Assembly (NCBI GenBank): GCA_045654585.1
Contig: JAZONS010000052.1
Span: 15,735 to 79,734 of the forward strand
From: Eubacteriales bacterium
GTDB lineage: Bacteria; Bacillota; Clostridia; Oscillospirales; CAG-272
Reading direction: 5' to 3'
DNA length: 64,000 nt
Below are positions 13,043 through 61,635 of this stretch, in pieces. The notes below the pieces were generated by a model, which was not told the DNA's origin, searched no databases, and saw nothing but the letters and a program-made list of their open reading frames with translations. How positions within the stretch are numbered: position 1 is the stretch's first letter; every line of letters starts with the position of its first letter. A program made the position numbers and the translations under genes.

Positions 13043-13134
13043 CTTTGCCTACCCGTTTGGCCTGCCGTGGTGGATACCTTGCCTGCCCGTTTGGCCTGCC
13101 CGGTGCATATCTTGCCTGCCCGTTTGGCCTGCCC
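13043..13134 (-). repeat. Three direct repeats of the tRNA-Arg 3' acceptor end plus trailer (24-nt cores, period 33-35 nt)
   Basis: cttgcctgcccgtttggcctgccc occurs at 13111-13134 (overlapping the tRNA 3' end) and identically at 13078-13101. A degenerate copy lies at 13043-13066. Confidence 0.85.
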
Positions 13135-13201
13135 GCGCGGACTCGAACCGCGGACCTTCAGAGTCGGAGTCTGACGCACTATCCATCTGTGCAACGGGCA
13201 G
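13125..13201 (-). tRNA. tRNA-Arg (anticodon CCG) with encoded CCA
   Basis: Manual cloverleaf: acceptor CTGCCCG/CGGGCAG, D stem GCAC/GTGC, anticodon stem TCAGA/TCTGA with loop CTCCGAC, T arm CGCGG-TTCGAGT-CCGCG, discriminator G, then CCA. Confidence 0.9.
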
Positions 13202-19487: not shown

Positions 19488-19734
19488 ACTAAAAAGGTCG
19501 AAGCAAGTGCTTCGACCTGATAAAAGCAAAAAATATATGCTTAACTATCAATCGAATATAGCACTCCACAGAACCCTGTGACAGTCGTACGGATATTCTC
19601 CGTGCGCCCAACAAAAAGTCTCTTAAACGACCTTTTATTTCGGCGGAAATACCTTTTACCAATCCTTTATGCGACGTTTAAGCGTCTTTGGAATGGCTAC
19701 TTTTTATTACCGCGCCTCTAATTCTTTGATTCGA
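19488..19734 (-). promoter_or_regulatory. Lysine riboswitch (L-box) with terminator
   Basis: The minus-strand leader contains AGAGGCGCGGTAA, GCCGAAA, CTGTCACAGGG and TGGAGTGCTA, with P1 tcgaat/attcga (19552-19734). A terminator hairpin at 19495-19518 is followed by a U-run. Confidence 0.75.
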
Positions 19735-25020: not shown

Positions 25021-25208
25021 AAAAATCTCCGTTTGTTTTACGAATCGGGAATTTATCTCGGGATACCGTAAATTCAAGCTTGATTTGTAAAAATGTTCAG
25101 CAAAATGTACTATTCTACAAAACATTATACTATTTTCCCTTGCAATTGTCAATATAATATTTTAAAATAATATTATAACTTATCAACCAAAGCCGGAAAG
25201 AGAAAAAT

Positions 25209-43547: not shown

Positions 43548-43668
43548 AATAAAAACACCTCCATAGAACAGATTTACATCTTGTGTCACAGGAGGCAGCA
43601 GAGTATCGTAAGCTGAGCAAGTTAAAGCTGCTGCCTGGCGAAATCATCTGCAATATTATTCCTTCGGA

Positions 43669-43790
43669 ACAGTGGGATGCGGAAGATAAACCGTAGAGCA
43701 AAGGCAGAGCTTCTAACCCGATTGCTCACTTCGTCCCTGCGGCAACTCCCCGTCCGCTGAGCACTTAAACGCTTATCATCCTACTCTGTT
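43669..43790 (-). promoter_or_regulatory. THF (tetrahydrofolate) riboswitch
   Basis: The minus strand AGAGTAGGATGATAAGCGTTTAAGTG...ACGAAGTGAG...GCATCCCACTGT parallels the E. siraeum THF aptamer (AGAGUAGAUGAUUCGCGUUAAGUG...ACGAAGCGAG...GCAUCCGCUC). Confidence 0.75.
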
Positions 43791-47337: not shown

Positions 47338-47393
47338 TCAGGTGTGGTAAAAATTACAAATTATATATTATGCACAAAAAAGGAGAAAAACAA

Positions 47394-50300
47394 GTGAAAA
47401 AGACTAAATTAATTGTTGCTCTTGCAGCTGTACTTTGCCTGCTTGTTTCGATGCTTGCAGTTCATACGTTTGCAGCTGATGGCTCCGCGAGCTACGGCGG
47501 TCTTGCCTTAAGCGGAGGAACCGATGAAGTGACCGGCAAAAAATTTGCAATGGATTCTTATCATACCTGTAAGGATACCGAAACTATGCCGGTAACACTT
47601 GAGGCGTGGGTGTATATTCCCGATTCGCTTAAGGGCGAGGCGGTTGGAACGCTTTACGGTAATTACTGGGCCGCATCAAAATACGGCAATGCGTTTATCA
47701 ACTGGGCAATAGCTAAAGATGCTACGCCGAGACTTGTATGGAGCAGCTCTCTTGACGGAGAGATGTATGACGTGTACTTCAATGAGTCTCGCCTTCCTAC
47801 CGATGCATGGTCGCATCTTTCGCTCGTTTACGACGGAGATACGGGCGTTATATCCTGCTATGTAAACGGAGTGCTCACCGAAACGAAGTACTATTATCCC
47901 GCGATCGATCCCGACGTTCTCGAGCTTCCGATGATACTTGGCGGCGATAACAGAACGATGAATGCAAGCTATTTCAAGGGTGAGATAGGAGATATAACAG
48001 TTTATTCCGACGTAAGAGATGCCGATGAGATCAGCGCGGATTACGCAAAGGGAATGGATATGACTGTGGCGACGGCAGATCTTACCGATGCTATCTGCTA
48101 CTATGATTTGGATTCCGAAGATATAGGAAAGAACATCGTTGATGAAACCGGAAACGGATATGATATCATATACAGCAAAACATGGCTCACCGAGGCTGAA
48201 ATGGAAGCTATAAGAAGCGCATCCGGATTCAAGCCCTCATATTCCTTTGCTGTTATGGGAGATACTCAGATGCTGGCGGATTATTATCCCGAAAAGATGC
48301 CCACTCTTTATCAGTGGATAGCGGATAATGCTGCCGCGGATAAAAAGAATATCAAGTTTGCTATCGGTCTTGGCGATATAACCAACGATAACGGCAGAGA
48401 TGACAGATATGAGTACGACGAAGTAAACAAGGTATATTATAAGGTAAGTTCAACGGCTGACAGTACTGCTCCTTATACTCAGTGGGACGTGGCTTACGAT
48501 GCAATAACACTCCTTGACGGTAAAGTCCCTTATGCTCTTGTAAGAGGTAATCACCACGTATACCCCGATTATAACGGTGTAAGAATTGAAGGCTTCAATA
48601 CATATTTTGAAAACTCCGAATGGTTTACCGCGCAGTTTACCTCGGAAAACGGCGGCGGTCTTTATACTACGGGATCCGACCCCGTTACGGGTTATAAGGT
48701 ATCCTATGCGAATACGTATCAGACTCTGACGGTAAATGGTACAAAGTATCTGTTCTTGAATCTTGACTGGAAAATAACCGCAGATATCGTCAGCTGGGCG
48801 GAGCAGGTTATTAAAACTCATCCCGATCATAGCGTTATAGTCAGCACGCACTCTTATCTCGAGTGTGACGGAAACACCGAGGACCTCGGAGATACCACCC
48901 CGAGATCCAGCTATAACGGAGACGTGCTTTGGGATATTCTCTTCTCGAAGTATGCTAACGTTAAAATGATACTTTCGGGACATATAGACAGAGAAATGAT
49001 AGTAACCACTCAGGTTAAGGGAGATCACGGTAACACCGTTACGCAGATGCTTATCAATCCTCAGGGCTTTGACTCCAACCTCGGCGGAACCGCTATGATA
49101 GCTATGTTCTATTTCAACGAGAGCGGAGATGAGATCTTCGTTGAATGGTATTCACCAACGAAGGATAGATATTACAAAAACATTAATCAGTATGCAATAG
49201 ATCTTAATGCCGACGTGGAAAATGAGGCAACGCCTGCTTGGGACGGAGCGAACGTTGAAACGCCTGCAGGCTCGGGAACCGAGGCTGATCCTTACCTTAT
49301 AGCCAACGCGAAAAATCTTGCTTGGATCAGCACGAAGATCACCGATGGCGGCGTATCCTTCGCGGGTAAATACTTCAAGCAGACAGCGGATATAGACCTT
49401 GGTGAAAACATACTTACATCTATTGGTAGATATTACATAAACTCTACGAATATGGCAGCGTTCGGAGGCATTTACGACGGATGCGGTTATTCTATAAAGA
49501 ACGGAACTATAACGGGTGGCAAGCTTTATACCAGCACGAACAGTCCCGCCCCTGAGCGCTATTTCGATTACAGCGAGGGATACGGTCTCTTTGGTGTAAT
49601 TTACGGCGCAACCATTAAGAATATCATCCTTGATGACGTTCAGGTTGTAGGTAGAGGCGTAACGGGTGCTATCGTAGGCCGTGCGGCTGCTCCCGAATTA
49701 ACAAACACCGAGCTTGCGGGCTTCAACACTATCACAGGATGTGAGATCACCGATAGCGTAAGAATAGTAACTCTTCTTCCTACAACCGGTGGATCTGCTC
49801 CCAGATCGTCGGATGACGGACTCAGAGCGGGCCGTGTCGGATCTATATGCGGTATGGCTTACTCGACTAACATCAACGGATGTAAGTCGGCTGCAGAATT
49901 CAGCCTTTCGGGTGACTTCACTCTCGCAGGCGGTATAGTCGGAACAGCGGGACTTAACACCAGAATAGAGAACTCTGCATTCACGGGCGGCATAACGCTT
50001 GCCGAGTCTGCGAGTGGTCTTGTTTCTTATATCGGTGGCATAGTCGGTGCAATTTCTCCCTCTCTTAGCAGTATGGATATGATCGGCTCAAAGCTTAATA
50101 TAAGCGGTCCCTTCTATATAGGCAATTGCTACAACAGCGGTTACTTCACATATCTTGCGAATGAGGCTACTGACGTTTATTACGGCGGTATTATAGGCTT
50201 CTTCGGAGATCTTCCCGACGTAGATGACGATTCTATCGAGTATCCGTATCTCATCGAAAACTGCTATAACCTTTATGAAGCTTCAAAAACAGCTTCCGGC

Positions 50301-53300
50301 GTGAAGCTTTCGGGACTCGTGGCTTACGCTGTTCCCGGAGAAAAGACTCTTTACGTAAAGAATTGCTACTCCGTATCGGTTGAAGCGGAAGAGGGTGAGA
50401 GCAACGAGTTCAGATTCGAAGCCGGTGCTACCTCTATCGACGGTCTTGACGCTATCGCTTGGGAGAATTGCGGAACTCTTGCAAAGACTGATATGAGCGG
50501 CTACGTTTCCGCAGTGGATGCAAGAATTTCATCCGTAAGAGCAAACGGTGTATCTACTGTCTGGATCGTAGGCTCGGGAGCTCCCACCGTAACGGCTACC
50601 GAAGGACTTAAGTATCTTGACACCGCAAGTAACATATATTACGTTTATGAAAACGGCGCATGGGTTGCGGTAAAGAATATAACCATCACCGATAACTCTC
50701 TTGAGACCGAGTACGGTACTATTCCCAACAAGTATATGACCAATACTATGGTAGTATTTTCAAAATCAGGAAACACGTATACCTGTGTTGGTGGATTTGA
50801 TAAGCTTTCCGAGGCTGTCAGCTGCGCTATTAATTCGAAGTATGGACTGACGTACGATCCGAATGGCGAGTCTGTTATCTATTTCAGAGCCGACGTTACT
50901 ACTAAGGATAATATAAGCGGTAACCTCGGATATATCGTAGGTACGGTAGTATTTGACCTTGGCGGTCACACGTTGACTCAGGCAAACAGCGAGCCTATAT
51001 TCAGAGCTTATTCGAAGTATTTGAACGGAACGGCGGAAAGCTATCCCGACGTTTTCTATCTCCCTTCATACTACGTTGTAAAGAACGGTGATATAGTTCT
51101 TAATACAAACGGATTGTTCTATTTCGGTACGGACGGTTCGGGATACAATCTCTTCACAGGTCCCGCTCCTTACGAAGTAAAAACTCTTAACTGGACTCTT
51201 GACGGAGTTAATATATCTCTTGCGAGAGGCGCAACACTGAATAGCCTCCTCGGAAAATATAAGGAGAGCGCAGATCACAAGGTGGATAAGGCTACTCACG
51301 TGAACCTTACTATCAAGGATAACTGCGTACTCGATATAACCAACGCTCCTTCGAACTTCGTTCTCTTCGATGCAAATGATCCTATCACCGAAGGTATGAT
51401 AAACAGCGTATCCTACAATACCAACTCGATCGTTAACGTTGAGGTCGGTGCGTGCGATATTATCGCATCGAACAGTAAGTTTACACTCCAGTCTGTTCAC
51501 CCGAACAACGGATCGTCGGTGACGTACACCGAGGATGAAAACGGTAACGCGCTTACTCTCAGCATTGGAGGCACCGAGTATAATCACGAGGATCTTTATA
51601 CTCCTTACGGATATATAAACACCGAATATTCCAACGTTGCTTCGCACCCCATAATAGAATTCACCTATTCAAACGGTAAGTACACTTGCTATAAGTCGTA
51701 TACCGATCTTGGAGATGCATTATCGGGTAACAGCGGTGCAAGAATCCGTTGCAGAGACGAGGGAACTCTCGCTGTCGTTTATGTGCGTGACAATATCACT
51801 GTTTCTTCGACTATGAGCGGTAATATGGGTTATATCTGCGGAACGATGGTCATTGACCTTGGCGGAAATACCATTACTCAGACAAACAGCGCTCCTCTCT
51901 TCAAGGCGTTTGCCAAGTATGACGGATCCCGTATCGGAAATTCCAACTTCAAGCTCATAAACGGCGAAATAAAGCTTACGAATCACAGCTTGTTCCAAGT
52001 AAGTATTGAGGGTACACCTTATGCTAACGATATCACAAACGTGAAAAACGTTAACTGGACTCTTGATAATCTTACTCTTACTGTAGGATCTGGCGTTGCA
52101 AACGCATTTACGGAATTTAGCGATTACGGCTCGAGCACATACGACGGAAGAAAGATGGTGTTCAATCTTAATATAAGTGATAACTGCGTAATTGATATGA
52201 CAAATGCTGACGCAGGCACGCTTCTCTTCGGCGCAAACGATCCTGTTATTAAGAATACCGCCGGTACGACAAAGTGCTATACCGATTCCGAAGTAAATAT
52301 CAATGTTGGAGCTTGCAGTATACTTGCTGCGAGCGGTAAGGATCCCGTATGGCTTTCGGTAAATAAAGATAACGGCTCATCCGTAACCTTCACCAAGAAT
52401 GCGGAAAACGAGGGAGCTACCGTAACGGTCGGCGACGTGACCTGCACTTATGAGAGTCTCACCACGCCTTACGGATACGTTCCTCTTAAGTATGCGGCTT
52501 ATCCTATTGCCGAGTTCAAGGTTGTTGACGGTGAATACGTCTTTAACAAGGGTTACACTTACCTAAACCAGATATATTCAACGGCTAATCTTTGCTTAAC
52601 TAAAGGTTCGAAAGCTGTACTCTGTTTCAGAGATGATATCAAAACTTCCGATTATACAGGAAGTGGCTCTTACGTATCCGGAAACTTCGGATATAATATG
52701 GGCACTATTATAATAGACCTTAACGGTCATACTCTTACTCAGGATGCTCCTAACCCCATTCTGAGAGCGTACGCAAAGCATAATTCAGCGACTGCAACGG
52801 CTGAGGCAGGGTACTATGAGATCATTAACGGTAATATCGTTCTCAACTCCTATGGAATATTTGACGTCGGCGCTGAGGGATCACAATATCAAAGCTCAAC
52901 TGTCGATAAAACACTTTATTGGACGTTTGATAATATCAATATCTCCTTCGGCAAGAACGCAACCGTGACCTCGCTTATTCAGTTTACCGAGAAGCTTAAG
53001 GTTGCACGCAATATGGGTATGAACGTAACCATCAAGGAGAATTGTGAAATAGACTTGACAAATGCTCCCTCGAACTTCCTTCTCTTCAATGCAAACGAAA
53101 CCACGTCTAAATATACCAATTCCATTGTAACGTTTAACATCGAGGGCTTGCAGATAATTGGCGGTGCCAAGAGCTTCAAGTGGTTTGACGTTCACGCAAG
53201 CAACGGCTCGTCCGTAATATTTAGCAGCTCCGATAACGGATACGTTCAGCTTGAGCTTTCAAAGAAAGCAGCTTCCGGTCTTGATACTTCGGTAGTATTC

Positions 53301-54221
53301 AAGAACTCGAAAGGTGCAGCTCTTACTCTTGTAAAGATTTTCGAGGGAGAGGAAACCACGGTTTATACTCTTGCTCCCGCAAGCATAAAGAGCTTCGTTC
53401 CAAAGATGAGCTTAACGCTTGACAGAAATCTTATAATGAACGCCTACGTACCCGTAAATAACCTACAAAAGTTTACATTTGATGGTGTATTGTACGACGA
53501 TCTTACCGCATTATCCGAAAATAAGATAACGCTTGACGACGGTAACGACTACTATCTCATCACGATTTCTCTCGATGCGAAAGAGGCGGCAAGAACGGTT
53601 AAGCTCGTGGCAACAGTTGATATAGGCGGCAAGAGCGCAACGGCAACCTTCACCTTTAGCATACCCAAGTATGCAGAGAAAATTATAGATAGCGGAACCG
53701 ATACCGAGGTAACTCTTATCAAGGACGTACTTGCATATATCAAGTCGGCTTACACCTACTTCGGCACGAATGATCCCGAGGCTATCTCGAAGATCGATGC
53801 GATTCTCGGTAACTATTCCGCAAAACCCACCGTCGAAGGTGACTCTCTGGCAAGTGTCTCGGGCTTCAAGTCGGTAACCTTCATTCTCGACGGAACGCCT
53901 TCAATGAGATTCTATCTTGCAGACGGCGCGAATGCTGAGAACTATGCGTTCTACGTAGGCATCAAGAAGGTGGCAACCGAGGTATCGGCAGACGGTAGTT
54001 ACGTTGATATCGACGTTTATGCGTACGCACTCTGCGAGACCGTATCGGTAAAGGTCGGTGGAGTTGACGCGGGAAGTTTCCATATCAACAGCTATTATAC
54101 CTACGTCAGCGGTGACAAGTATACCGCAGAAAATAAAGCCGAGCTCGTGGCACTTACAGAATGCTTCTGGAAGTATCTTCAGAGCGCAAGAGCATACAGA
54201 GAGTCGGTAATCGAAGGATAA
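47394..54221 (+). CDS. Giant secreted modular protein 1: LamG + calcineurin-like metallophosphoesterase + GLUG-type region + three ~290-aa modules + conserved C-terminal domain
   Basis: GTG at 47394 lies 7 nt after AAGGAG; the ORF-track ATG at 47370 has no RBS. It has a signal peptide and a LamG motif WSHLSLVYDG...CYVNG. MPE motifs are FAVMGDTQ, GLGDIT, VRGNHH, STHSYL and SGHID. The GLUG-like region is GGIVG/GAIVG. Confidence 0.8.
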   Translation: MKKTKLIVALAAVLCLLVSMLAVHTFAADGSASYGGLALSGGTDEVTGKKFAMDSYHTCKDTETMPVTLEAWVYIPDSLKGEAVGTLYGNYWAASKYGNAFINWAIAKDATPRLVWSSSLDGEMYDVYFNESRLPTDAWSHLSLVYDGDTGVISCYVNGVLTETKYYYPAIDPDVLELPMILGGDNRTMNASYFKGEIGDITVYSDVRDADEISADYAKGMDMTVATADLTDAICYYDLDSEDIGKNIVDETGNGYDIIYSKTWLTEAEMEAIRSASGFKPSYSFAVMGDTQMLADYYPEKMPTLYQWIADNAAADKKNIKFAIGLGDITNDNGRDDRYEYDEVNKVYYKVSSTADSTAPYTQWDVAYDAITLLDGKVPYALVRGNHHVYPDYNGVRIEGFNTYFENSEWFTAQFTSENGGGLYTTGSDPVTGYKVSYANTYQTLTVNGTKYLFLNLDWKITADIVSWAEQVIKTHPDHSVIVSTHSYLECDGNTEDLGDTTPRSSYNGDVLWDILFSKYANVKMILSGHIDREMIVTTQVKGDHGNTVTQMLINPQGFDSNLGGTAMIAMFYFNESGDEIFVEWYSPTKDRYYKNINQYAIDLNADVENEATPAWDGANVETPAGSGTEADPYLIANAKNLAWISTKITDGGVSFAGKYFKQTADIDLGENILTSIGRYYINSTNMAAFGGIYDGCGYSIKNGTITGGKLYTSTNSPAPERYFDYSEGYGLFGVIYGATIKNIILDDVQVVGRGVTGAIVGRAAAPELTNTELAGFNTITGCEITDSVRIVTLLPTTGGSAPRSSDDGLRAGRVGSICGMAYSTNINGCKSAAEFSLSGDFTLAGGIVGTAGLNTRIENSAFTGGITLAESASGLVSYIGGIVGAISPSLSSMDMIGSKLNISGPFYIGNCYNSGYFTYLANEATDVYYGGIIGFFGDLPDVDDDSIEYPYLIENCYNLYEASKTASGVKLSGLVAYAVPGEKTLYVKNCYSVSVEAEEGESNEFRFEAGATSIDGLDAIAWENCGTLAKTDMSGYVSAVDARISSVRANGVSTVWIVGSGAPTVTATEGLKYLDTASNIYYVYENGAWVAVKNITITDNSLETEYGTIPNKYMTNTMVVFSKSGNTYTCVGGFDKLSEAVSCAINSKYGLTYDPNGESVIYFRADVTTKDNISGNLGYIVGTVVFDLGGHTLTQANSEPIFRAYSKYLNGTAESYPDVFYLPSYYVVKNGDIVLNTNGLFYFGTDGSGYNLFTGPAPYEVKTLNWTLDGVNISLARGATLNSLLGKYKESADHKVDKATHVNLTIKDNCVLDITNAPSNFVLFDANDPITEGMINSVSYNTNSIVNVEVGACDIIASNSKFTLQSVHPNNGSSVTYTEDENGNALTLSIGGTEYNHEDLYTPYGYINTEYSNVASHPIIEFTYSNGKYTCYKSYTDLGDALSGNSGARIRCRDEGTLAVVYVRDNITVSSTMSGNMGYICGTMVIDLGGNTITQTNSAPLFKAFAKYDGSRIGNSNFKLINGEIKLTNHSLFQVSIEGTPYANDITNVKNVNWTLDNLTLTVGSGVANAFTEFSDYGSSTYDGRKMVFNLNISDNCVIDMTNADAGTLLFGANDPVIKNTAGTTKCYTDSEVNINVGACSILAASGKDPVWLSVNKDNGSSVTFTKNAENEGATVTVGDVTCTYESLTTPYGYVPLKYAAYPIAEFKVVDGEYVFNKGYTYLNQIYSTANLCLTKGSKAVLCFRDDIKTSDYTGSGSYVSGNFGYNMGTIIIDLNGHTLTQDAPNPILRAYAKHNSATATAEAGYYEIINGNIVLNSYGIFDVGAEGSQYQSSTVDKTLYWTFDNINISFGKNATVTSLIQFTEKLKVARNMGMNVTIKENCEIDLTNAPSNFLLFNANETTSKYTNSIVTFNIEGLQIIGGAKSFKWFDVHASNGSSVIFSSSDNGYVQLELSKKAASGLDTSVVFKNSKGAALTLVKIFEGEETTVYTLAPASIKSFVPKMSLTLDRNLIMNAYVPVNNLQKFTFDGVLYDDLTALSENKITLDDGNDYYLITISLDAKEAARTVKLVATVDIGGKSATATFTFSIPKYAEKIIDSGTDTEVTLIKDVLAYIKSAYTYFGTNDPEAISKIDAILGNYSAKPTVEGDSLASVSGFKSVTFILDGTPSMRFYLADGANAENYAFYVGIKKVATEVSADGSYVDIDVYAYALCETVSVKVGGVDAGSFHINSYYTYVSGDKYTAENKAELVALTECFWKYLQSARAYRESVIEG

Positions 54222-54234
54222 GGAGGTAGAGAAA

Positions 54235-54366
54235 ATGAAAAAGTATATAATCCCCGAGCTTGAAGTAATCGAGCTTGAAGCAGAAGATATCATCACTACC
54301 TCGCCGGGTACGGAAACGACACCGAAAGAGGATAACGACGGTATCTGGGACTTCGATTTTGCTTAA
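54235..54366 (+). CDS. 43-aa acidic small protein (family member)
   Basis: The ATG lies 8 nt after AAGGAGG and 13 nt after the giant gene stop. Product is MKKYIIPELEVIELEAEDIITTSPGTETTPKEDNDGIWDFDFA. Confidence 0.65.
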   Translation: MKKYIIPELEVIELEAEDIITTSPGTETTPKEDNDGIWDFDFA

Positions 54367-54621
54367 TGTCAGAATTGTCCCTATGAAAACACCTCATCCA
54401 CCACTAAAGTGGTCCCCCTATACCTGACCACTCCCGTGTCGCGAACTTTCGCGAGGCGTTGCTCGCTCGGTTTGCTCGCGTTTGTGGGACTTCGCTTCAA
54501 AAAACAATACTTAATCGTTTTTTGTGCGCTCACCCACTGGGGAAGGCTAGAGGTATCCGGGACTTCGATCTCAGTTAATTTAAACCGAATCAAGAATAAC
54601 TGATTCAATATTTATAAAGCG

Positions 54622-54664
54622 ACAAGGCTTACCCGAGTAATCTTGGGTAAGCCTTGTTTTTTTG
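54622..54664. terminator. Bidirectional terminator between the giant gene 1 unit and araC
   Basis: 13-bp stem acaaggcttaccc/gggtaagccttgt followed by a T-run. Confidence 0.8.
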
Positions 54665-54737
54665 TCCTATATGTAAACTATTGTATTCAAAAAAGCAGTT
54701 ATTCGATGCATAGATAATAAAAAAGCGAAGCGAGATA

Positions 54738-55562
54738 CTACAAAACTGCATCGTTGATGACAATCTTCTTGGGGTAAAACATACGGTAATCGTTTGGAGT
54801 GTATCCCGTGAGCTCCTTGAAGCTTCGGTAAAAGCTTCGTTCGCTTCCGAAGCCGCATTCGATGGCAATATCAACTATCGTTCTGTCGGTGTTTTTTAAA
54901 AGGTGTCTGGCTGATTCAAGACGCAACATTGATAAGAGCGTGGAAAAACCAAATCCTGCCGCGCTGTTGATGCATCTTGAGAGATACTTTTCGTTGTATC
55001 CGAGCGCGGAAGCGGTTTTTGTGATAGTGATACGTTCGCTTTTATGGGAATCGATATAAGTTATAACCTTGCTTAAAACGTTATCGTCAATGTGCTTTTC
55101 TATGAGCGATACGTTATTAGAATAGTCGCCGACAATGTTGTATAAAAATCCTTTTACTTTGTACAGTGTAAGATTTCCGGTGCGTACTGTGTCTAAAAAA
55201 GCCGCGTATTCATCGATATTCAGCGGGAATACCGAGCGCTCGCCCGTATTCTTTTCGTTGGGAGCAAAAAATGATTGGATGAGTGATGGTAAAAAGTTAA
55301 ATCTAAAGTATTCCGTGCCCTCGGGTCTGTCATACGCGTGGGACTGAAAAGGGAAGAGCAGAGCGCAACTTCCTGCCGGGATCTTCTCGGAATTCTTGCC
55401 GAGAACGTGCAGAGTCAATTCTCCGGATGTAACCAGAAGGAGCTCTGCCGATGGGTGTATATGAAAATGCATTTTGCATTCTTCCGCGTTTCCGAGTTTG
55501 ATACTGTGCTCTTTTGCGATAAAAGATGTGGAAATTTCCTGCAAACTGTTGAAATATTTCAT
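54738..55562 (-). CDS. AraC family transcriptional regulator (cupin + HTH), divergent from giant gene 2
   Basis: Cupin-like N-terminus HFHIHPSAELLLVTSGEL and C-terminal HTH CGFGSERSFYRSFKELTGYTPNDYR. Confidence 0.85.
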   Translation of the reverse strand: MKYFNSLQEISTSFIAKEHSIKLGNAEECKMHFHIHPSAELLLVTSGELTLHVLGKNSEKIPAGSCALLFPFQSHAYDRPEGTEYFRFNFLPSLIQSFFAPNEKNTGERSVFPLNIDEYAAFLDTVRTGNLTLYKVKGFLYNIVGDYSNNVSLIEKHIDDNVLSKVITYIDSHKSERITITKTASALGYNEKYLSRCINSAAGFGFSTLLSMLRLESARHLLKNTDRTIVDIAIECGFGSERSFYRSFKELTGYTPNDYRMFYPKKIVINDAVL

Positions 55563-55616: not shown

Positions 55617-55744
55617 AGTTGTCAAGAAGGTTATGCTATAATAAAGTCGAACGTACACGTATTTTCTATTTAATTATTATAATAGATACGTGAATTTTGT
55701 ATCATTTGAATTAACCAAATCAAGTATTCAAAAGGAGAATGGAA

Positions 55745-58700
55745 ATGAAAAAGAGAAGAATTTTGTTAATTGCTCTCTCATTGGTGCTCTTTGTTGGACT
55801 TGCGGTCTGTGCTTCGCTTTCGGTTTTTGCGGATAGCACTGTTACAGAGTCAACCTGGATATCTGCACCTGAGAAAACAATGGTAAAGTGCGCAGGCGCT
55901 AACTGCAATCACAAGGAATGTAATTACGTATATTCCTTCGCTGTTGTCGGCGATACGCAGAACCTTAATATCTATGACGTTAATAATAAGACGGAGCATA
56001 TGAAAGGACTTTACAACTGGTTACTTGCTAACAAGGAGAGCAAGAATATTCAGTACGTTTTAGGTCTTGGAGATATCACCCAGGCTTATTACAGGGGATA
56101 CCAGAGTGGTGTCTGGGAGCAGGAATGGGTTAATGCCAAGGAAGCGATATCCTTGCTTGACGGCAAGATTCCTTATTCTCTTGTAAGAGGTAATCACGAT
56201 ATCACTGCCGGCTTCAACGGAGCATTCGGTGTCGGCAATAAGTATTATACCGATCTTTCCGCGCTCGCTGCGACGAAGGACAGCGCAGATGAAAACGGCA
56301 GACCCATGGCGGGCTTCCTTAACGAGAATAAAATCGAGGATACCTACCGCAAGGTTATCATCGGTGACCATAAGTACATAATTTTCACTCTCGATTGGCA
56401 CCCTACGGAGGCATGCCTTGACTGGGTAGATACGATACTTGCCGAGAACTCTGACTATCAGGCTATAATAACGCTCCATTCGTTTATTTACCGTGACGGT
56501 TCTATCACGGACGATTACGAAGATACCTTCCCTTATGAAAATCTTTCGGGTACCCGTCCCAATTGGGAAGAGGTTTCAAATTCGGGCGGTAACGTTTTCC
56601 CGAAGGTTCTCTGGCAAAACGTTCTCTCAAAGCATAAGAACGTAGAGATGATCCTTTGCGGTCACATAGATGAAGACAATATCGTAACGACTCAGCTCAA
56701 GGGTGAAAACGGAAATACCGTTACCGCTATGCTCATAGACGGACAGACGATAGACTCTACCGTCGAGCCTGTTGGTATGGTAGCGATGTTCTACTTCTCG
56801 GCAGACGGCAAGGTTATGAACGTTGAGTACGTTTCAACAGTAAGAGAGGCTGCAGATAAAAACGCTTATCTTGGCAGTCAGAATCAGTTTGAGGTTTCTC
56901 TTGATTATACCGTATCAGAAACGGACAGCGGTTGGACTGAAACTGCTCACGGAAGCATTTTGACCGAGACTTATAACGCATATCCCTTCCACGTCCTTAT
57001 GGACGATGACTCGGACGAGAGCACGGATGCAATCCTCTTTGGCAGCTATTCGAGCTGGGAGGAAACGCTAAAAGCTATTCACGATTTCTGCGGCAATACA
57101 AGACCTTCATCGCACAAGAAGATGAAGACCTATTACATAGTTATGTCGAAGGACTATACCGATACATATGTTGGTATTCACGATAACCGCGCTGCTTACA
57201 ACTTTGGTAAAACCGTTCTTGATCTTAACGGAAAAACGCTGACCCTCGCATCGACTGACGGCGTATTTCTTCCGTTCTACGTAAATTCGAGCGGAAAATA
57301 TCCGAGATTTACAATCACGAACGGAAACATTGATATTACGGGCAAGGTTAAGCTTGTTGCGCTTCAGAGCGGATCTTCGGCTCAGGGAGAGACCGGTACG
57401 CTTGAGCTTTCTAACCTTAATATCACTTATTCTTCCGGTGCGACCGCAACGCCATTGATCACAACTTATAACGGTTCCGGCACGGGAAGCTACGTTGACT
57501 TTAAGGTTTCGAACTGTAATATAGATTCGTCTGCCGTAAACGGCGCTATGACACTGTTCGGTCTTAACGATACTAATAATAACAATCACGTGGCTTTGAA
57601 TATAACCGGCGGTAGCATCAAGGGATCAACCTTGGCTAACACTACTGTTTTCGCACTCAATAACCTGTCCGATAAGGTTACCTTCACTAAGGATTCCGAC
57701 GGTAATTATATGACCTTGACTCTTTCTGACAGTGCGACGTTTGACGGAGTGTTCTATTCCGACGTTAAGGATACGTATCTTGAGTTTGGTACGCCCGTTG
57801 CCGACGGAGATTCTTATCTCTATTCTCTTGAAAAATCGGGAGACGTTCTTACAGATTACGGAATTATACCCGAAAGCGCAACCTCGTATCCCTTCGTGCT
57901 CTTCAAAAACGGCGAGATGATTCATAAATCTTCGGACTGGAAGACTCTTATTGATACCGACTTTAAAGACACGGCAAATTATCAGTCGGGATGCACACTT
58001 CTTTTAAGAAGTGATTACACCACAAGCAATTCTTCAGGAGCTCCCTCTTATTTTGCTCGTATTGATGACTTGACGATAGACCTCGGCGGAAATACGTTGA
58101 CCCGTGGTTCAAAACATCTGTTCCAGATATTTGGAACGGAGTCTACAGCTCACTCTACTTCTATAAGGTTTATAAACGGAACGATAGCATCGGGAAGCAG
58201 CACAGCTCCCATAGCATTTAATAACTCAGATACTAATACCAATACCGATACGTTTGACTTCACCTTTGACGGCGTCAGATTCGACCTTAGCGCTTCAGTA
58301 ACCGGATCGCAGGGAATCGTAGTATGCTTCGGCGACGGTACTCAAAAAGGTGTCGATGCTACGATAACTCTCAATGACTGCACGATCTACCGAGGCTCGT
58401 CGACGAGAAAAATGACTCTCTTCGCACTTATCGACGAAAAAGATGGCAAGGTTAATAACAAAACAGACGTTAACGTAGTAATCAACGGCGGAGAGCTCGT
58501 TGCCGATACTATGTCGGGCATAACCCTTGCGACTTATAGCCCTGTGCGTGAAGGTATGACCGCCTCTGCGGACAGTCTTTCGTTAGGTAAGGGAAGTGAC
58601 GGTAAATACCTTATTGCAAAGCTTCCTGCGTCTTATACCGTTCCTACGACGACGTATGCTTTGCTTGACGGTAATTATGCTGTTGGAAAGGATTCGGATG

Positions 58701-61378
58701 ACGGCACGACTGCATATTGCAGCTTCAATAAGCTTACCACTCCTTACGGTGACATTTCAGCAAAGTATGCATCTATTGTAAATTATCCGTTTGCTGTATT
58801 TTATAACGGTGTATTCAAGAACGTATACAGCTCTTATAACAAGGCTATCGGCGGCGCGGTCGCTCTTATCGATACTGATGCCGAGGTAGCGGTATGCGAT
58901 ACTGCGTACGTAGTATTGAGAAGTAATTTTGTTGCAACAGATAACGGATTCTTCTCGGGAGCAAGAGGTAACTTGATCGTTGATCTTCAGGGTTACACTA
59001 TCAGCTCCTCTACTGCAGCTCTTGCGAGCATCAGTATGAATTATAACAACATAACCGATGAGGCTGCGGTGGAGAAGAATCTCAGCTTCACCTCAAATAT
59101 CACGTTCAAAAACGGTACCATCAAAAACGACAGATCGGGACTTCCGATCATCGCAATAGACCAGACGAACGGAAGCGTAACGACAGTTCCGGGCGCTACG
59201 GCAAAGAAGATCTACTTTGGATTTGATAACGTAACCTTCAGAACGGCAAGCCAGCCTGTTTTACATAATTATGACAAAACGTCCTCTCACGGACTTGAAA
59301 TTACCGTTTTTGCAAAGGATTGTACCTTTGACTTTACTGGGGCTACCGAAGGCGTAGCAATGATCTCGCTCTTTAACAAGCTTGTAAAAGCAAATATAGA
59401 GCTCGTTGGATGTAATGTAATTGCGAGCAAGCTTGATAGCTTCAACGTTTATAAGATCGGTTCCGACGATACCGCAAAGATCACCAAGGGCGATAACGGT
59501 GTTTATATGACCGTAACTCAGTCAACTGAGGCTCTTCCTACTACGGTATATAGTTTGTCTGACGGTGGAAGCGCATCCTTCTATCTCACATCAAGCTCCG
59601 GTGGAAAATACGTTTATGATCTTGGCGCTGATGAGTTTATAGACGGATATGGAACTATCCCTGCTCAGTATACCAACAAAGAGACCTATCCCGTAGTTCT
59701 CTTCGGCAACGGTTCTGTTACCGGATACACTACAGTAGCGAATGCATTTGCGGCTTTACCTACAACAGGTAACTATACCATTCTTGTAAGAAGAGACGTA
59801 GTCAAAGATACCAAGAAGGCTGTAAGTGCCTTCAGAGGAAATCTTACGATTGACCTTGATGGACATACGCTGACGGTAGCTGTTGACGGAAACTATCTCA
59901 TAGATATAACGCTCAGTGATGTTGGTACGGGCGCATCGGCAGGCTTCAGCTTTAAAAACGGTACGCTTAAGAAGGAAGGCGGACGCGGACTTGTTCTTTA
60001 CAACTATAATTCGAGCTTGAACGGAAGTGCAAATTATACGTTCGATTTCGATAGCGTAACGTTTGTTTCAACGGACTCCACCTATACACCTAACGTAATA
60101 TTCAATACATGGGAAGACGGTTTTACGAATGCAACTGTTGCGGCAAGTGATTATAAGCTCGTTGCAAATTCAACGTTCACGGACTGCGTATTTGATTTCG
60201 CAAGCTCAATAGACGGTGCGGTAATGCTTCCTCTTAACCATAGCAGTAACACGAGGGACAGAGTCGTGCATAACGTTACCGTTAACGGAGGTACTGTTCT
60301 TGCCGATACTGCGGCGGACTTTGCGGATAGATTCGTAAAGCTCGACGGAAACACTAACGGAAGAGCGGATTCTATCACCTTCTCAAAGGTAAACGGCGGT
60401 AATTACACGGCGCTTACTCTTCCTTACGGAACAGAAGCTCCTGCTGCAGAGTATAACGGACTTGTATTCGTCAAGATCTCCGATAACGGAACAGACGTGA
60501 CCTACAGACTCAGACCCGTAGAATTTGCTAATTTGAATTATGCGCCTAAGATGAGTCTTACTATTGACAGAAACCTTATAATGAATGCGTATATTCCTGT
60601 AAACTTTACACAAAAGTTTACATTTGATGGTGTAGAATATACAAATCTTACTGCGTTTGACGGTAAAACGGTAGAGATAGACGGCGCAATGTACTATCTT
60701 GTATCGGTAGAGCTTTCTGCAAAGGAAGCGGCAAGAAACGTTATTCTTGAAGCAACGGTTATGGCTGATGAGAATACCGCAACCGCAACGTTCACGTTCT
60801 CAATTGTGAAGTATGCCGAGAAGCTCCTTGGCGATTCCGCAGTTACGGAAACCGAAAAGACTCTTGTTCTTGACGTGCTTCAGTATATCAAAGCCGCATA
60901 TACCTACTTCGGCACTACCGATGCCGAGCAGATAGCAAAGATCAACAGCCTTCTCGGTGATTACGCATCGAAGCCTACCGTAGAGGGAAGTGCAACGGCT
61001 GAAACAACGGGAATGAAGAGCGCAACTCTCGTTCTCTCGGGCAAGCCTAGCATCAGGTTCTATCTTGCAGACGGTGCTGACGCTTCGGCGTATAAGTTCT
61101 TCATCGACGGAAAGCAGGTTAAAACCGTAATTTCCGATGACGGAGCATATGTTGATATAGACGTATACGCATATGCGCTCTCTGAAACCGTAACCTACAC
61201 GGTTGACGGAGAGAATGCGGGTAGCTTTCATATCAACGCGTACTACGCATTCGTCAGCGGCACGGGAGAAAACTCTTACGCCGGCGAAGATAAAGAAGCT
61301 CTCACCACTCTTACCGAGTGCTTCTGGAAGTATCTGCAGAGCGCAAGGGCGTACAGAGAGTCGGTTGTTGAAAACTGA
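55745..61378 (+). CDS. Giant secreted modular protein 2: metallophosphoesterase + four ~295-aa modules + conserved C-terminal domain
   Basis: The ATG at 55745 lies 7 nt after GGAG. Signal peptide is MKKRRILLIALSLVLFVGLAVCA. MPE motifs are FAVVGDTQ, GLGDIT, VRGNHD, LHSF and CGHID. Modules start near 56960, 57852, 58735 and 59642. Confidence 0.8.
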   Translation: MKKRRILLIALSLVLFVGLAVCASLSVFADSTVTESTWISAPEKTMVKCAGANCNHKECNYVYSFAVVGDTQNLNIYDVNNKTEHMKGLYNWLLANKESKNIQYVLGLGDITQAYYRGYQSGVWEQEWVNAKEAISLLDGKIPYSLVRGNHDITAGFNGAFGVGNKYYTDLSALAATKDSADENGRPMAGFLNENKIEDTYRKVIIGDHKYIIFTLDWHPTEACLDWVDTILAENSDYQAIITLHSFIYRDGSITDDYEDTFPYENLSGTRPNWEEVSNSGGNVFPKVLWQNVLSKHKNVEMILCGHIDEDNIVTTQLKGENGNTVTAMLIDGQTIDSTVEPVGMVAMFYFSADGKVMNVEYVSTVREAADKNAYLGSQNQFEVSLDYTVSETDSGWTETAHGSILTETYNAYPFHVLMDDDSDESTDAILFGSYSSWEETLKAIHDFCGNTRPSSHKKMKTYYIVMSKDYTDTYVGIHDNRAAYNFGKTVLDLNGKTLTLASTDGVFLPFYVNSSGKYPRFTITNGNIDITGKVKLVALQSGSSAQGETGTLELSNLNITYSSGATATPLITTYNGSGTGSYVDFKVSNCNIDSSAVNGAMTLFGLNDTNNNNHVALNITGGSIKGSTLANTTVFALNNLSDKVTFTKDSDGNYMTLTLSDSATFDGVFYSDVKDTYLEFGTPVADGDSYLYSLEKSGDVLTDYGIIPESATSYPFVLFKNGEMIHKSSDWKTLIDTDFKDTANYQSGCTLLLRSDYTTSNSSGAPSYFARIDDLTIDLGGNTLTRGSKHLFQIFGTESTAHSTSIRFINGTIASGSSTAPIAFNNSDTNTNTDTFDFTFDGVRFDLSASVTGSQGIVVCFGDGTQKGVDATITLNDCTIYRGSSTRKMTLFALIDEKDGKVNNKTDVNVVINGGELVADTMSGITLATYSPVREGMTASADSLSLGKGSDGKYLIAKLPASYTVPTTTYALLDGNYAVGKDSDDGTTAYCSFNKLTTPYGDISAKYASIVNYPFAVFYNGVFKNVYSSYNKAIGGAVALIDTDAEVAVCDTAYVVLRSNFVATDNGFFSGARGNLIVDLQGYTISSSTAALASISMNYNNITDEAAVEKNLSFTSNITFKNGTIKNDRSGLPIIAIDQTNGSVTTVPGATAKKIYFGFDNVTFRTASQPVLHNYDKTSSHGLEITVFAKDCTFDFTGATEGVAMISLFNKLVKANIELVGCNVIASKLDSFNVYKIGSDDTAKITKGDNGVYMTVTQSTEALPTTVYSLSDGGSASFYLTSSSGGKYVYDLGADEFIDGYGTIPAQYTNKETYPVVLFGNGSVTGYTTVANAFAALPTTGNYTILVRRDVVKDTKKAVSAFRGNLTIDLDGHTLTVAVDGNYLIDITLSDVGTGASAGFSFKNGTLKKEGGRGLVLYNYNSSLNGSANYTFDFDSVTFVSTDSTYTPNVIFNTWEDGFTNATVAASDYKLVANSTFTDCVFDFASSIDGAVMLPLNHSSNTRDRVVHNVTVNGGTVLADTAADFADRFVKLDGNTNGRADSITFSKVNGGNYTALTLPYGTEAPAAEYNGLVFVKISDNGTDVTYRLRPVEFANLNYAPKMSLTIDRNLIMNAYIPVNFTQKFTFDGVEYTNLTAFDGKTVEIDGAMYYLVSVELSAKEAARNVILEATVMADENTATATFTFSIVKYAEKLLGDSAVTETEKTLVLDVLQYIKAAYTYFGTTDAEQIAKINSLLGDYASKPTVEGSATAETTGMKSATLVLSGKPSIRFYLADGADASAYKFFIDGKQVKTVISDDGAYVDIDVYAYALSETVTYTVDGENAGSFHINAYYAFVSGTGENSYAGEDKEALTTLTECFWKYLQSARAYRESVVEN

Positions 61379-61393
61379 AAGGAGGAGTGATTA

Positions 61394-61573
61394 ATGCAGA
61401 ATTCAAAATGCAGAATGCAGAATGAAAAGAATGAATTAGTGGTTATGAGTTATATAGCTCCCGAGCTTGAAGTGATCGGGCTTGACGCAATGGATATCAT
61501 CACTACCTCACTCGGAACGGAAACGACTCCGAAAGAAGATAACGACGGTATCTGGGACTTTGACCAAGGTTAA
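61394..61573 (+). CDS. 59-aa acidic small protein (family member with N-terminal extension)
   Basis: The ATG lies 7 nt after GGAGGAG. Product is MQNSKCRMQNEKNELVVMSYIAPELEVIGLDAMDIITTSLGTETTPKEDNDGIWDFDQG. The conserved core could alternatively start at the ATG at 61445. Confidence 0.6.
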   Translation: MQNSKCRMQNEKNELVVMSYIAPELEVIGLDAMDIITTSLGTETTPKEDNDGIWDFDQG

Positions 61574-61585
61574 TACTTGATTTAC

Positions 61586-61635
61586 CTGTACCGCGAAGTA
61601 ATAATTTTCTTCGCGGTACAGAACTTTATTTTTTC
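61586..61635 (+). terminator. Terminator after small ORF 2
   Basis: 13-bp stem ctgtaccgcgaag/cttcgcggtacag followed by a T-rich tract. Confidence 0.75.

Follow-up and report, generated by a model that had tools for sequence, protein, structure and literature searches.

Are the very short open reading frames found immediately downstream of genes for giant secreted proteins in gut Clostridia real genes, and if so, what kind of peptide do they encode? The question was raised by three such ORFs in a 64,000-nt stretch of the genome of Eubacteriales bacterium (assembly GCA_045654585.1, contig JAZONS010000052.1, positions 15,735 to 79,734), called the window below. The analysis shows that they are real members of a very large unnamed family of gut-Clostridia peptides whose conserved N-terminus resembles a lasso-peptide leader. 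In relatives, the peptide genes sit beside a set of candidate peptide-processing and export genes, which points to an undescribed peptide system tied to cell-surface proteins.

Small ORFs downstream of giant genes

All three ORFs lie on the forward strand and exist as the initial annotation had described them. The first (2628-2744) has a GTG start and encodes 38 aa, MKKYETPIIEVIVIESTDIIRTSPDTPIIDFDDFLEIN, with the same leader-like N-terminus as the other two but a different tail, PDTPIIDFDDFLEIN. The second (54235-54366) encodes 43 aa, MKKYIIPELEVIELEAEDIITTSPGTETTPKEDNDGIWDFDFA, a 23-aa leader-like N-terminus followed by the tail PGTETTPKEDNDGIWDFDFA; its exact sequence is present in public data. 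The third (61394-61573) encodes 59 aa, a 17-aa N-terminal extension made of MQN-type repeat units followed by MSYIAPELEVIGLDAMDIITTSLGTETTPKEDNDGIWDFDQG, with the tail LGTETTPKEDNDGIWDFDQG. A six-frame motif scan finds exactly these three copies in the window. By inspection, the conserved part contains no signal peptide, transmembrane segment or cysteine, in agreement with the initial annotation.

The ORFs start 20, 13 and 15 nt after the stop codons of large genes on the same strand. All are preceded by strong Shine-Dalgarno boxes. AGGAGG (2612-2617) lies 10 nt before the GTG of the first ORF, with a mini-ORF ATG-AAA-TAA (2619-2627) in between. AAGGAGG (54220-54226) lies 8 nt before the ATG of the second ORF and overlaps the stop codon of the giant gene, and AGGAGG (61380-61385) lies 8 nt before the ATG of the third. 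The ORFs are not read-through extensions of the giant proteins, as the second is out of frame and the third is separated by two in-frame stops.

The claim that each ORF is followed by a terminator needs correction. The terminator-like structure after the second ORF is 255 nt downstream, at 54621-54658 (54621-54668, forward strand, for the intrinsic-terminator-like hairpin plus T-run that would end the transcription unit). A repeat element (54424-54578) has been inserted in between, at the 3' end of the peptide gene, followed by a decayed duplicate of the last codons of the peptide (GIRDFDLS*, 54552-54578). Hairpins followed by T-runs are visible by eye after the first ORF (2782-2821, 9-bp stem and long loop) and the third (61586-61635, 13-bp stem and 10-nt loop). 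However, the terminator scan did not call them, as their loops are too long for it.

The second ORF follows a gene for a 2283-aa giant secreted protein (47370-54221) with a signal peptide, LamG and metallophosphoesterase domains, repeats and a C-terminal domain. The third follows a gene for a 1879-aa giant secreted protein (55739-61378) with a signal peptide, metallophosphoesterase domain, repeats and a C-terminal domain. The first follows the 3' part of a giant gene (1-2607) open to the window start, 89% identical to residues 1068-1919 of a protein from a related locus (L098) that has a signal peptide. Its C-terminus is of the beta-propeller/LVIVD type, and it does not share the C-terminal domain of the other two. 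A homologue of the first peptide (P0134) lies behind a gene for a 1919-aa secreted protein. The 5' part of a fourth giant gene (61668-64000; signal peptide, SASA esterase) runs off the window, and in syntenic loci this gene is followed by a peptide gene. An AraC-family regulator (54738-55562, reverse strand) is divergent from the giant gene at 55739, and this arrangement recurs in relatives.

The peptide family

A profile of the three peptides hits 918 proteins in one collection and 649 clusters at 50% identity in an exhaustive library, all of them small peptides of 29-89 aa. The family occurs in hundreds of gut and rumen Clostridia, including cultured Ruminococcus, Coprococcus, Roseburia and Lachnospiraceae, where the genes are annotated only as hypothetical proteins or not called at all. 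Cultured carriers include Ruminococcus flavefaciens ND2009, Coprococcus ammoniilyticus H1_22 and Clostridium sp. AM49-4BH, and carriers of the window-type peptides include GCA_017411605.1 (MAG RGIG2037). It was indeed unnamed, as had been supposed: Pfam and NCBIfam scans gave no hits, a PDB profile search gave nothing, and literature searches, covering also the DIITTS and ELPFVP motifs, ScmA/B/C and PF14907 with PqqD and HPr kinase, found nothing relevant.

Coding-type conservation and the presence of homologues had been set as tests beforehand, and both were found. Fourteen distinct DNA copies give pS of about 0.57 and pN of 0.14, so that pN/pS is 0.245, and 0.075 for the C-terminal tail alone. 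A chance ORF within a conserved 3' untranslated or terminator region could be suspected, as the ORFs are short and the family is unannotated. However, this is refuted by the codon-level conservation (pN/pS of 0.075-0.41 with near-saturated synonymous change), the conserved Shine-Dalgarno boxes, and hundreds of divergent homologues with conserved length and frame; no Rfam family matches there.

The members have a conserved 23-residue N-terminus, MKKY-x-x-P-E-[LIM]-E-[VI]-I-x-[LF]-x-x-x-D-I-I-T-T-S, followed by a variable, acidic, aromatic or proline-rich tail. Conservation is 98% for Y4, 94% for P7, 89% for L/I/M at position 9, 93% for E10, 96% for I20 and 92% for T22, and D18 and S23 are invariant in an unbiased alignment. 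The tails are diverse and 5-66 aa long; some are Cys-rich and sit beside radical SAM genes. Thus the family has the conserved leader-like region joined to a variable region that is expected of RiPP precursors. However, within the window's clade the tail is far more conserved than the leader-like region, which is unusual for a RiPP and fits a protein-binding peptide that needs no processing.

The N-terminus carries the YxxPxL motif, the conserved leader motif of lasso precursors (PMC10368454), which PqqD-type recognition elements (RREs) bind in lasso-peptide biosynthesis. It lies 20 residues before the conserved TTS junction, whereas the lasso motif occupies positions -17 to -12. The leader HMM scores published Firmicutes lasso precursors (sequences from PMC7533575) above 197-200 of 200 shuffles, but at only 1-9 bits.

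Pairing with giant secreted proteins

In 79 GTDB Clostridia loci, 73% of the peptides directly follow a gene for a signal-peptide protein of at least 500 aa (58 of 79 follow a same-strand ORF of this size within 250 nt, against a background of 20%). Most of these proteins end in a shared, unannotated C-terminal domain (CTD) of about 275 aa, and 63 of 70 CTD genes are followed by a peptide gene. The loci were retrieved through the peptide motif, so the neighbourhood frequencies are conditional on that.

The CTD always ends 0-7 aa from the C-terminus. In the window it is encoded at 53394-54218 (HMM hit ending 5 aa from the C-terminus of the 2283-aa protein) and at 60551-61375, the two copies being 60% identical. 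An AlphaFold2 model of the latter (pLDDT 88.4) predicts a beta-sandwich, three helices, a second beta-sandwich and a long terminal helix. A Foldseek search of this model against PDB gave only generic Ig-like matches with TM below 0.25, and there was no Pfam or PDB sequence match.

The interpretation in the initial annotation, that the peptides are dedicated partners of the giant proteins, is partly supported: the genetic pairing holds far beyond this genome, but a physical interaction remains inferred. An AlphaFold2 run on the CTD concatenated with the third peptide, using an unpaired alignment, gave pLDDT of 31-63 for the peptide and no confident docking. The suggested roles of chaperone, inhibitor or regulator are conjectural on present evidence.

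One possibility is that the peptide is an unprocessed cytoplasmic partner, translated right after the CTD leaves the ribosome and binding it as a holdase, export chaperone or plug, for example by beta-strand addition, and never modified or exported in this clade. The spacing of 13-20 nt with a separate Shine-Dalgarno box, the position of the peptide gene behind the 3' end that encodes the CTD, the absence of processing genes from the window-type loci examined, the very strong purifying selection on the tail, nearly identical among paralogues behind different giants, and the alternating pattern of the N-terminus typical of beta-strands agree with this. On the other hand, the positions that define the RRE motif stay conserved, relatives with the same leader and the same CTD proteins do carry a PqqD, peptidase and exporter set, no confident docking was obtained, and the first peptide follows a protein without the CTD. 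Thus this explanation is possible but rather unlikely.

Candidate processing genes in related loci

About 30 of the 79 loci contain, in a conserved order, genes for a PqqD-family RRE, an HPr-kinase-like kinase, a cytoplasmic S24/S26-type serine peptidase, an ABC exporter, an NTP_transf_5 nucleotidyltransferase and a lipoprotein. The PqqD protein, present in 24 related loci, hits PF05402 at 2e-11; its best NCBIfam hits are lasso PqqD chaperones, at 25-30 bits, below their cut-offs of 70-80. The kinase gives weak HprK_rel and ScmC hits and has a Walker A motif. The 140-aa peptidase hits signal peptidase I and SipW models and carries GDSM. The nucleotidyltransferase hits NTP_transf_5 at 3e-40. 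The ABC protein (about 570 aa) has only ABC_membrane and ABC_tran domains, without a peptidase domain. In two loci (L050 and L089) the giant gene and the peptide gene lie downstream of the processing genes in one same-strand cluster. Ruminococcus flavefaciens ND2009 and one other genome have one locus with processing genes plus orphan giant-plus-peptide pairs elsewhere. A radical SAM/SPASM gene lies upstream of the AraC, giant and peptide genes in two loci (L007 and L008), but does not recur and was not counted as linked.

The lipoprotein has a long Thr/Ser/Glu-rich stalk ending in [IV]ELPF[VI]Pxx. Of the 27 lipoprotein HMM hits, 24 end in ELPF[VI]Pxx or a close variant. The related pattern [LT]P[FILVM][IVL]P occurs in 12 of 250 unique peptide tails, against 0.18 expected, and one locus (L055) holds a natural lipoprotein-peptide fusion.

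The initial annotation had faintly compared the N-terminus with leaders of Firmicutes RiPP precursors, and this comparison is now the best-supported lead. Its statement that no maturase is nearby is true for the window and for every close relative examined. No PqqD, kinase, peptidase or NTP_transf_5 gene was found by Pfam scans of 36 window ORFs, by local HMMs at E below 10 on the window and 16 related loci, by inspection of further gene neighbourhoods, or in any of about 25 loci carrying the window-type (GTET...W) peptides, even at relaxed thresholds. A JGI metagenome scan, which returned only contigs of 2.8 kb or less, also gave none. Thus processing in this organism is inferred, and the genes would have to act in trans from elsewhere in the genome, if at all.

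Other peptide classes fit less well. True lasso precursors, with a cyclase encoded elsewhere and an incidental link to the giant genes, are very unlikely. In the window peptides the ring would run from G25 to E/D32 with W38 as the plug, and in the GTET subfamily Gly25, an acidic residue eight positions later and a Trp are conserved. The leader resemblance also agrees with this, and the accessory genes (PqqD, HPrK-like, NTP_transf_5, ABC) are those of paeninodin- and pseudomycoidin-type lasso clusters (PMC9266682). However, none of about 30 clusters has an asparagine-synthetase-like lasso cyclase or a transglutaminase-type B2, nor does the window; among 52 further neighbours the only Asn_synthase hit carries GATase domains and looks housekeeping. 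An S24/S26-type peptidase sits where B2 would be. If cleavage is after S23, T22 is at -2 as in lasso leaders, but a lasso core begins with Gly/Ala/Ser/Cys and has Asp/Glu at position 7-9, whereas the first tail residue is Pro in 31% and Gly in 21% of 260 tails, the window tails start with P, L and P, and many tails are only 5-12 aa long. Only with a one-residue shift does the GTET subfamily give G1...E/D8; for that cleavage the residue before Gly25 varies, Thr is not at -2, and the motif spacing is -21, not -17.

Graspetide precursors are also not supported: although the tail is rich in T, K, D and E, no ATP-grasp gene recurs in the clusters and none lies near the peptides in the window. Neither are double-glycine leader peptides, as there is no GG motif at the junction and no C39 domain in the ABC protein.

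Possible function

The most likely explanation, with a probability of about 0.5, is that the three ORFs encode precursor peptides of a large, undescribed RiPP-like family of gut and rumen Clostridia, genetically coupled to giant surface proteins. In this view, residues 1-23 form the leader and the tail after Ser23 is the functional part. PqqD would bind the leader, the kinase and the nucleotidyltransferase would decorate Ser or Thr, the peptidase would remove the leader near TTS, and the ABC transporter would export a linear tail. However, Pro, the commonest residue after Ser23, blocks classical signal peptidase I, and thus the cleavage site is uncertain. The peptide gene would be co-transcribed with the giant gene, and the exported tail would work together with the CTD at the cell surface, most simply as a ligand or docking element, the ELPFVP end of the lipoprotein acting in the same way. 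Each surface protein would thus bring its own partner peptide. The coding status of the ORFs, the extent of the family, the pairing with giant genes and the gene neighbourhood in relatives come directly from the sequence analysis, whereas translation into a processed product, modification, leader removal, export, CTD binding and the biochemical role as a whole are inferred.

Alternatively, the tail could be an exported signalling peptide that reports expression of its giant protein and is sensed by a neighbouring regulator, AraC-type in the window's clade and two-component systems elsewhere. Indeed, an AraC regulator sits next to almost every giant-plus-peptide unit of the window type, histidine kinase and response regulator genes lie near some clusters, and short exported tails resemble Gram-positive pheromones. 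However, AraC regulators with cupin domains usually bind sugars, and the giant proteins look like glycan-active enzymes. Further, the near-identical tail behind many different giants in one genome carries no gene-specific information, and the lipoprotein with the same C-terminal motif is not explained. Thus this prediction is weak.

A more speculative extension, for which the evidence is slender, is that the peptides, the CTD, the ELPFVP-ended lipoprotein and the PqqD/kinase/peptidase/ABC/nucleotidyltransferase genes form a previously unrecognised cell-surface display system of Clostridia. RiPP-type machinery would make small exported peptides, possibly phospho-linked to the wall, that serve as docking sites or release factors for the CTD, and each giant surface enzyme gene would therefore carry its own anchor-peptide gene.

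If the main reading is right, it defines a cyclase-less offshoot of lasso-type biosynthesis with a different leader peptidase, an unannotated C-terminal domain that marks many of the largest surface proteins of these bacteria, and a one-to-one genetic coupling between a ribosomal peptide and a giant secreted enzyme. To our knowledge, there is no precedent for the latter. The gene set would be a concrete candidate for how these bacteria hold giant glycan-active enzymes on their surface without LPXTG, SLH or dockerin modules, which is unresolved. The leader motif is also a simple handle for finding small genes that gene callers miss.

Comparison with known systems

By functional analogy only, the CTD can be compared with C-terminal sorting or anchoring modules and their partner systems (LPXTG-sortase, dockerin-cohesin, T9SS C-terminal domain). 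There too, a conserved domain sits at the extreme C-terminus of many otherwise unrelated multidomain proteins with signal peptides, and a dedicated small gene set is encoded nearby. However, there is no sequence or specific fold relationship, the partner here is a small leader-bearing peptide encoded behind each gene, and a role in anchoring is conjectural.

The uncharacterised PqqD/HprK-related cassettes defined by NCBIfam (HprK-related kinase A/B systems; SynChlorMet cassette protein ScmC) also have an HPrK-like P-loop protein next to a PqqD-family protein in a presumed peptide-modification cassette. The best hits of the 245-aa kinase-like protein are to TIGR04249, TIGR04355 and TIGR04352, but they are weak, far below the curated cut-offs (12-26 bits against 125-200). 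Those cassettes occur in other phyla and are not known to have this precursor family, the S24/S26 peptidase, the lipoprotein or the link to giant proteins.

The closest systems are Firmicutes lasso-peptide clusters of the paeninodin/pseudomycoidin type (A precursor, B1 PqqD RRE, B2 protease, C cyclase, D ABC exporter, K HPr-kinase-like kinase, N nucleotidyltransferase). They share the short precursor with an MKK-[YW]-x-x-P-x-[LIM]-E-V leader, in which the YxxPxL motif is present but at another spacing, the occurrence in Firmicutes and, in the related loci with processing genes though not in the window, a separate PqqD-family RRE that matches the lasso PqqD models only below their cut-offs, an HPrK-like kinase, an NTP_transf_5-type nucleotidyltransferase and an ABC exporter. 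The clusters described here differ in having no asparagine-synthetase-like cyclase and a 140-aa S24/S26-type serine peptidase in the place of the transglutaminase-type B2. The tails often lack Gly1 and Asp/Glu 7-9 or are too short to form a lasso, there is no conserved C-terminal Ser for the kinase, and the leader is 3-4 residues longer. Finally, the peptide gene is coupled to giant secreted-protein genes and to a lipoprotein with a shared C-terminal motif.

Small genes downstream of giant secreted-protein genes

The initial annotation described three small ORFs following very large secreted-protein genes, and this observation holds. Peptide gene 1 occupies positions 2628-2744 (GTG start, 38 aa), peptide gene 2 positions 54235-54366 (43 aa), and peptide gene 3 positions 61394-61573 (59 aa). 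They begin 20, 13 and 15 nt after the stop codons of large plus-strand genes, and each has an AGGAGG-type Shine-Dalgarno site 8-10 nt upstream. A six-frame motif scan of the window finds only these three copies. In the case of peptide gene 1, a mini-ORF ATG-AAA-TAA (2619-2627) sits between the Shine-Dalgarno site and the GTG codon, and the true start, or a coupling mechanism, may differ from the other two genes.

The genes preceding peptide genes 2 and 3 are 47370-54221, encoding a protein of 2283 aa with LamG and a metallophosphoesterase domain, and 55739-61378, encoding a protein of 1879 aa with a metallophosphoesterase domain (giant gene 3). Both proteins have clear signal peptides. The ORF upstream of peptide gene 1 is open to the window start and ends at 2607. 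Its product is 89% identical to the last 852 residues of a 1919-aa signal-peptide protein in a related contig, and that protein is also followed by a 38-aa homologue of the peptide. A fourth giant gene (61668-64000), encoding a signal peptide, a SASA sialate O-acetylesterase domain and then the same repeat modules, runs off the window. Family member P0067, from a contig of 106,063 bp, may be its trailing peptide. The window also contains three AraC-family regulators (54738-55562, 9571-10416 and 24199-25152, all on the minus strand), one of which is divergent from giant gene 3. In relatives, almost every unit of a giant gene and a peptide gene has its own AraC gene next to it. In two related loci, L007 (6184-7047) and L008 (1-810), a radical SAM/SPASM gene encoding 287-297 aa lies directly upstream of an AraC regulator, a 2724-aa giant gene and a window-type peptide. 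However, it does not recur in other loci, and thus any link is uncertain.

The claim that each ORF is followed by a terminator needs correction in two details. The terminator of the second unit lies 255 nt downstream, at 54621-54658, and a repeat element has been inserted at the 3' end of the peptide gene. The hairpins after the other two ORFs are seen only by eye. The inserted element (54424-54578 in the window) is about 115-190 nt long and is followed by a decayed duplicate of the last codons of the peptide (GGTATCCGGGACTTCGATCTCAGTTAA, encoding GIRDFDLS and a stop). The same element lies just after peptide genes in related contigs (L001, positions 4807-4965 and 10173-10286, and the equivalents in L002-L006), in both orientations, and in L001 it is followed by an intact duplicate (EDNDGIWDLDLG and a stop). 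This looks like a small mobile or recombining element that targets the conserved 3' end of these genes. Its RNA fold is not significant (z = -1.8).

The N-terminal extension of peptide 3 (61394-61444) is built from units of about 21 nt (ATGCAGAAT...). Homologues exist as 52-, 59- and 73-aa forms that differ by whole MQN(S/E)K-type units. This suggests copy-number variation of a tandem repeat between the Shine-Dalgarno site and the conserved region.

Other elements of the window are a lysine riboswitch (19551-19728, minus strand) upstream of an amino-acid ABC transporter operon, a THF riboswitch (43668-43790, minus strand) upstream of genes for an ECF-type transporter S component and a Mur-ligase-family (folylpolyglutamate-synthase-like) protein, and a tRNA-Arg(CCG) gene (13125-13201, minus strand).

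Coding potential and size of the family

Fourteen distinct DNA copies of the window-type peptide, taken from the window and related contigs, were compared. Synonymous divergence is about 0.57 and non-synonymous divergence is 0.14, resulting in pN/pS of 0.245. For residues 1-23 the ratio is 0.41, whereas for residues 24-41 it is 0.075. No Rfam family matches these regions. Thus these are real coding genes, and a chance non-functional ORF is extremely unlikely. Two of the three exact sequences are already present in public data, on an NCBI contig of 106,063 bp. Close copies are annotated as "hypothetical protein" in the metagenome-assembled genome GCA_017411605.1 (goat colon, "Clostridia bacterium" RGIG2037), which is syntenic with the window. 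The 90%-identity cluster that holds the 43-aa peptide (54235-54363) also lists BsuBI/PstI restriction endonucleases of Zobellia roscoffensis of roughly 800 aa, evidently a clustering artefact of the database.

The family is very large. A profile of the three peptides finds 918 proteins at E of 0.01 or better in a word-indexed protein collection and 649 clusters at 50% identity in an exhaustively searched library, all of them 29-89 aa long. Searches of Pfam, NCBIfam and PDB gave no match, and no paper on the family was found, in agreement with the initial annotation, where it was not recognised as a named family.

The members share a 23-residue N-terminus with the pattern M-K-K-Y-x-x-P-E-[LIM]-E-[VI]-I-x-[LF]-[ED]-x-x-D-[IV]-I-T-T-S. 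The most conserved positions are Y4 (98%), P7 (94%), E10 (93%), I20 (96%) and T22 (92%), and D18 and S23 are invariant in an alignment that was not built by a motif filter. After Ser23 the sequences diverge. The tails are 5-66 aa long (median 19), rich in D, G, E, T and P, and often carry W or F. The two long peptides of the window belong to a subfamily with the tail x-G-T-E-T-x-x-x-[DE]-[DE]-x-D-G-x-W-[DE]. A few members (loci L027, 9974-10156; L056, 2630-3068; L039, 7192-7434) have Cys-rich tails, for example CLAFVCNSVETCPNDCKDCKFEMCSGDVVG, and sit near radical SAM genes. One possibility is that the same leader also serves sactipeptide- or ranthipeptide-like maturation.

Similarity to lasso-peptide leaders

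The conserved N-terminus looks like a lasso-type leader. The YxxPxL motif is conserved in leaders of lasso-peptide precursors at positions -17 to -12 (PMC10368454), and published predicted Firmicutes lasso leaders, such as MKKDWTIPTLEVLDINMTMA and MKAWNTPVIETLEINETAA, have the same start (PMC7533575, Table 3). An HMM of the family's leader scores nine such precursors above 197-200 of 200 shuffles each. However, the absolute scores are only 1-9 bits. This is a resemblance rather than membership.

Gene neighbourhoods in other genomes

A scan of GTDB for [FL][ED]xEDIITTS returned 79 loci from Lachnospiraceae, Ruminococcus (including R. flavefaciens ND2009), Roseburia, Coprococcus, Oscillospiraceae and others. 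Firstly, the peptide genes are coupled to genes for large secreted proteins. Of 79 peptides with usable upstream sequence, 58 follow a same-strand ORF of at least 500 aa within 250 nt, whereas the background in the same loci is 20%. Most of these proteins have signal peptides. By BLASTP, 60 of 94 upstream proteins, including the two complete giants of the window, share their last 250 residues or so. A local HMM finds 70 such proteins away from locus edges. In all but four of them the match ends 0-11 residues from the C-terminus, and 63 of them are followed by a peptide gene. This C-terminal domain has no sequence match in Pfam, NCBIfam or PDB. The AlphaFold2 model (pLDDT 88.4, pTM 0.85) consists of a beta-sandwich, three helices, a second beta-sandwich and a long terminal helix, and Foldseek finds only generic Ig-like matches to it.

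Secondly, in about 30 of the 79 loci the peptide gene is followed by a candidate processing gene set, usually in the same order: a lipoprotein-like protein of about 155 aa; an HPr-kinase-related P-loop protein of about 245 aa with weak ScmC and HprK_rel hits; a PqqD-family protein of about 86 aa (PF05402, 2e-11), whose best NCBIfam hits are lasso PqqD chaperones, although below their cut-offs; a protein of about 140 aa with a GDSM motif, which hits signal peptidase I and SipW models and has no N-terminal membrane segment; an ABC exporter of about 570 aa with no peptidase domain; and an NTP_transf_5 nucleotidyltransferase of about 367 aa. In loci L050 and L089 the giant gene and its peptide lie downstream of these genes, in the same same-strand cluster. 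Some genomes have one such locus plus orphan pairs of a giant gene and a peptide gene elsewhere, as in R. flavefaciens ND2009 (locus L074 against L026). A Pfam survey of 52 further neighbours found ABC transporters, three radical SAM proteins and a single Asn_synthase with GATase domains, but no recurrent lasso cyclase and no transglutaminase-type B2.

A shared C-terminal motif

The lipoprotein-like proteins have a lipobox, a long Thr/Ser/Glu-rich low-complexity stalk and an almost invariant end, [IV]ELPF[VI]Pxx. The same motif occurs in peptide tails, for example ...NPELPFVPVSGK, ...YDLPFVPAD and ...GETPFVPI. The pattern [LT]P[FILVM][IVL]P is present in 12 of 250 unique tails, compared to 0.18 expected from shuffles, and a looser form is present in 46, compared to 7 expected. 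In locus L055 (2510-2971) there is a natural fusion, where a lipoprotein signal and a Thr-rich stalk continue in frame into a full leader motif (KEEYITPEIEVTEFDEEDIITTS) and a tail that ends in IELPIIPIR. The tail of window peptide 1 (PDTPIIDFDDFLEIN) resembles the IDFDDNELPLVP tail of family member P0263. Therefore the peptide tails and the lipoprotein end seem to present the same kind of short C-terminal epitope.

Possible mechanism

The analysis shows that the genes are real, that they form a large family with a conserved N-terminus, including the YxxPxL motif, and a variable tail, that their position behind giant secreted-protein genes, most of which encode one shared C-terminal domain, is conserved, and that in relatives a PqqD, kinase, peptidase, ABC and nucleotidyltransferase set is adjacent, without a lasso cyclase. 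The functional scheme is, on the other hand, inferred. In this view, PqqD would bind the leader, and the kinase and the nucleotidyltransferase would decorate Ser or Thr; in paeninodin and pseudomycoidin clusters the related K and N enzymes phosphorylate, and then glycosylate, a C-terminal Ser (PMC9266682). The S24/S26-type peptidase would remove the leader near TTS. Thr at -3 and Ser at -1 fit the small-residue rule of signal peptidases, but the frequent Pro at +1 argues against a classical enzyme. The ABC transporter would export a linear tail, and the tail would act with the C-terminal domain of the giant proteins at the cell surface. The last step rests only on gene order and the shared motif, and AlphaFold2 on the domain concatenated with peptide 3 gave no confident docking.

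Thus the interpretation in the initial annotation, a dedicated partner of the giant proteins whose start faintly recalls RiPP leaders, is partly supported. It also mentioned that no maturase is nearby, and indeed no processing gene was found in the window or in any of about 25 loci with window-type peptides, so that any processing of the window peptides would have to occur in trans. In the window's clade the tail is almost invariant between paralogues behind different giants, and it is more constrained than the leader. This pattern fits a conserved binding partner, but it equally fits a model in which the peptide binds the newly made C-terminal domain in the cytoplasm without any processing. 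We assign a probability of about 0.5 to the RiPP-like, trans-processed reading. The unprocessed partner is a less likely alternative, and a signalling peptide is rather improbable.

Comparison with known systems

The nearest known system is the Firmicutes lasso cluster with K and N tailoring genes. The class-defining cyclase and B2 were looked for and are absent from the clusters of the relatives and from the window, so a true lasso peptide is very unlikely. To our knowledge, and as far as could be found, three features have no precedent: a different candidate leader peptidase, a lipoprotein with the same C-terminal motif as the peptide tails, and one-to-one coupling to giant surface-protein genes that carry an unannotated C-terminal domain. 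The candidate system is best described as a new variant of RRE-dependent ribosomal peptide systems.
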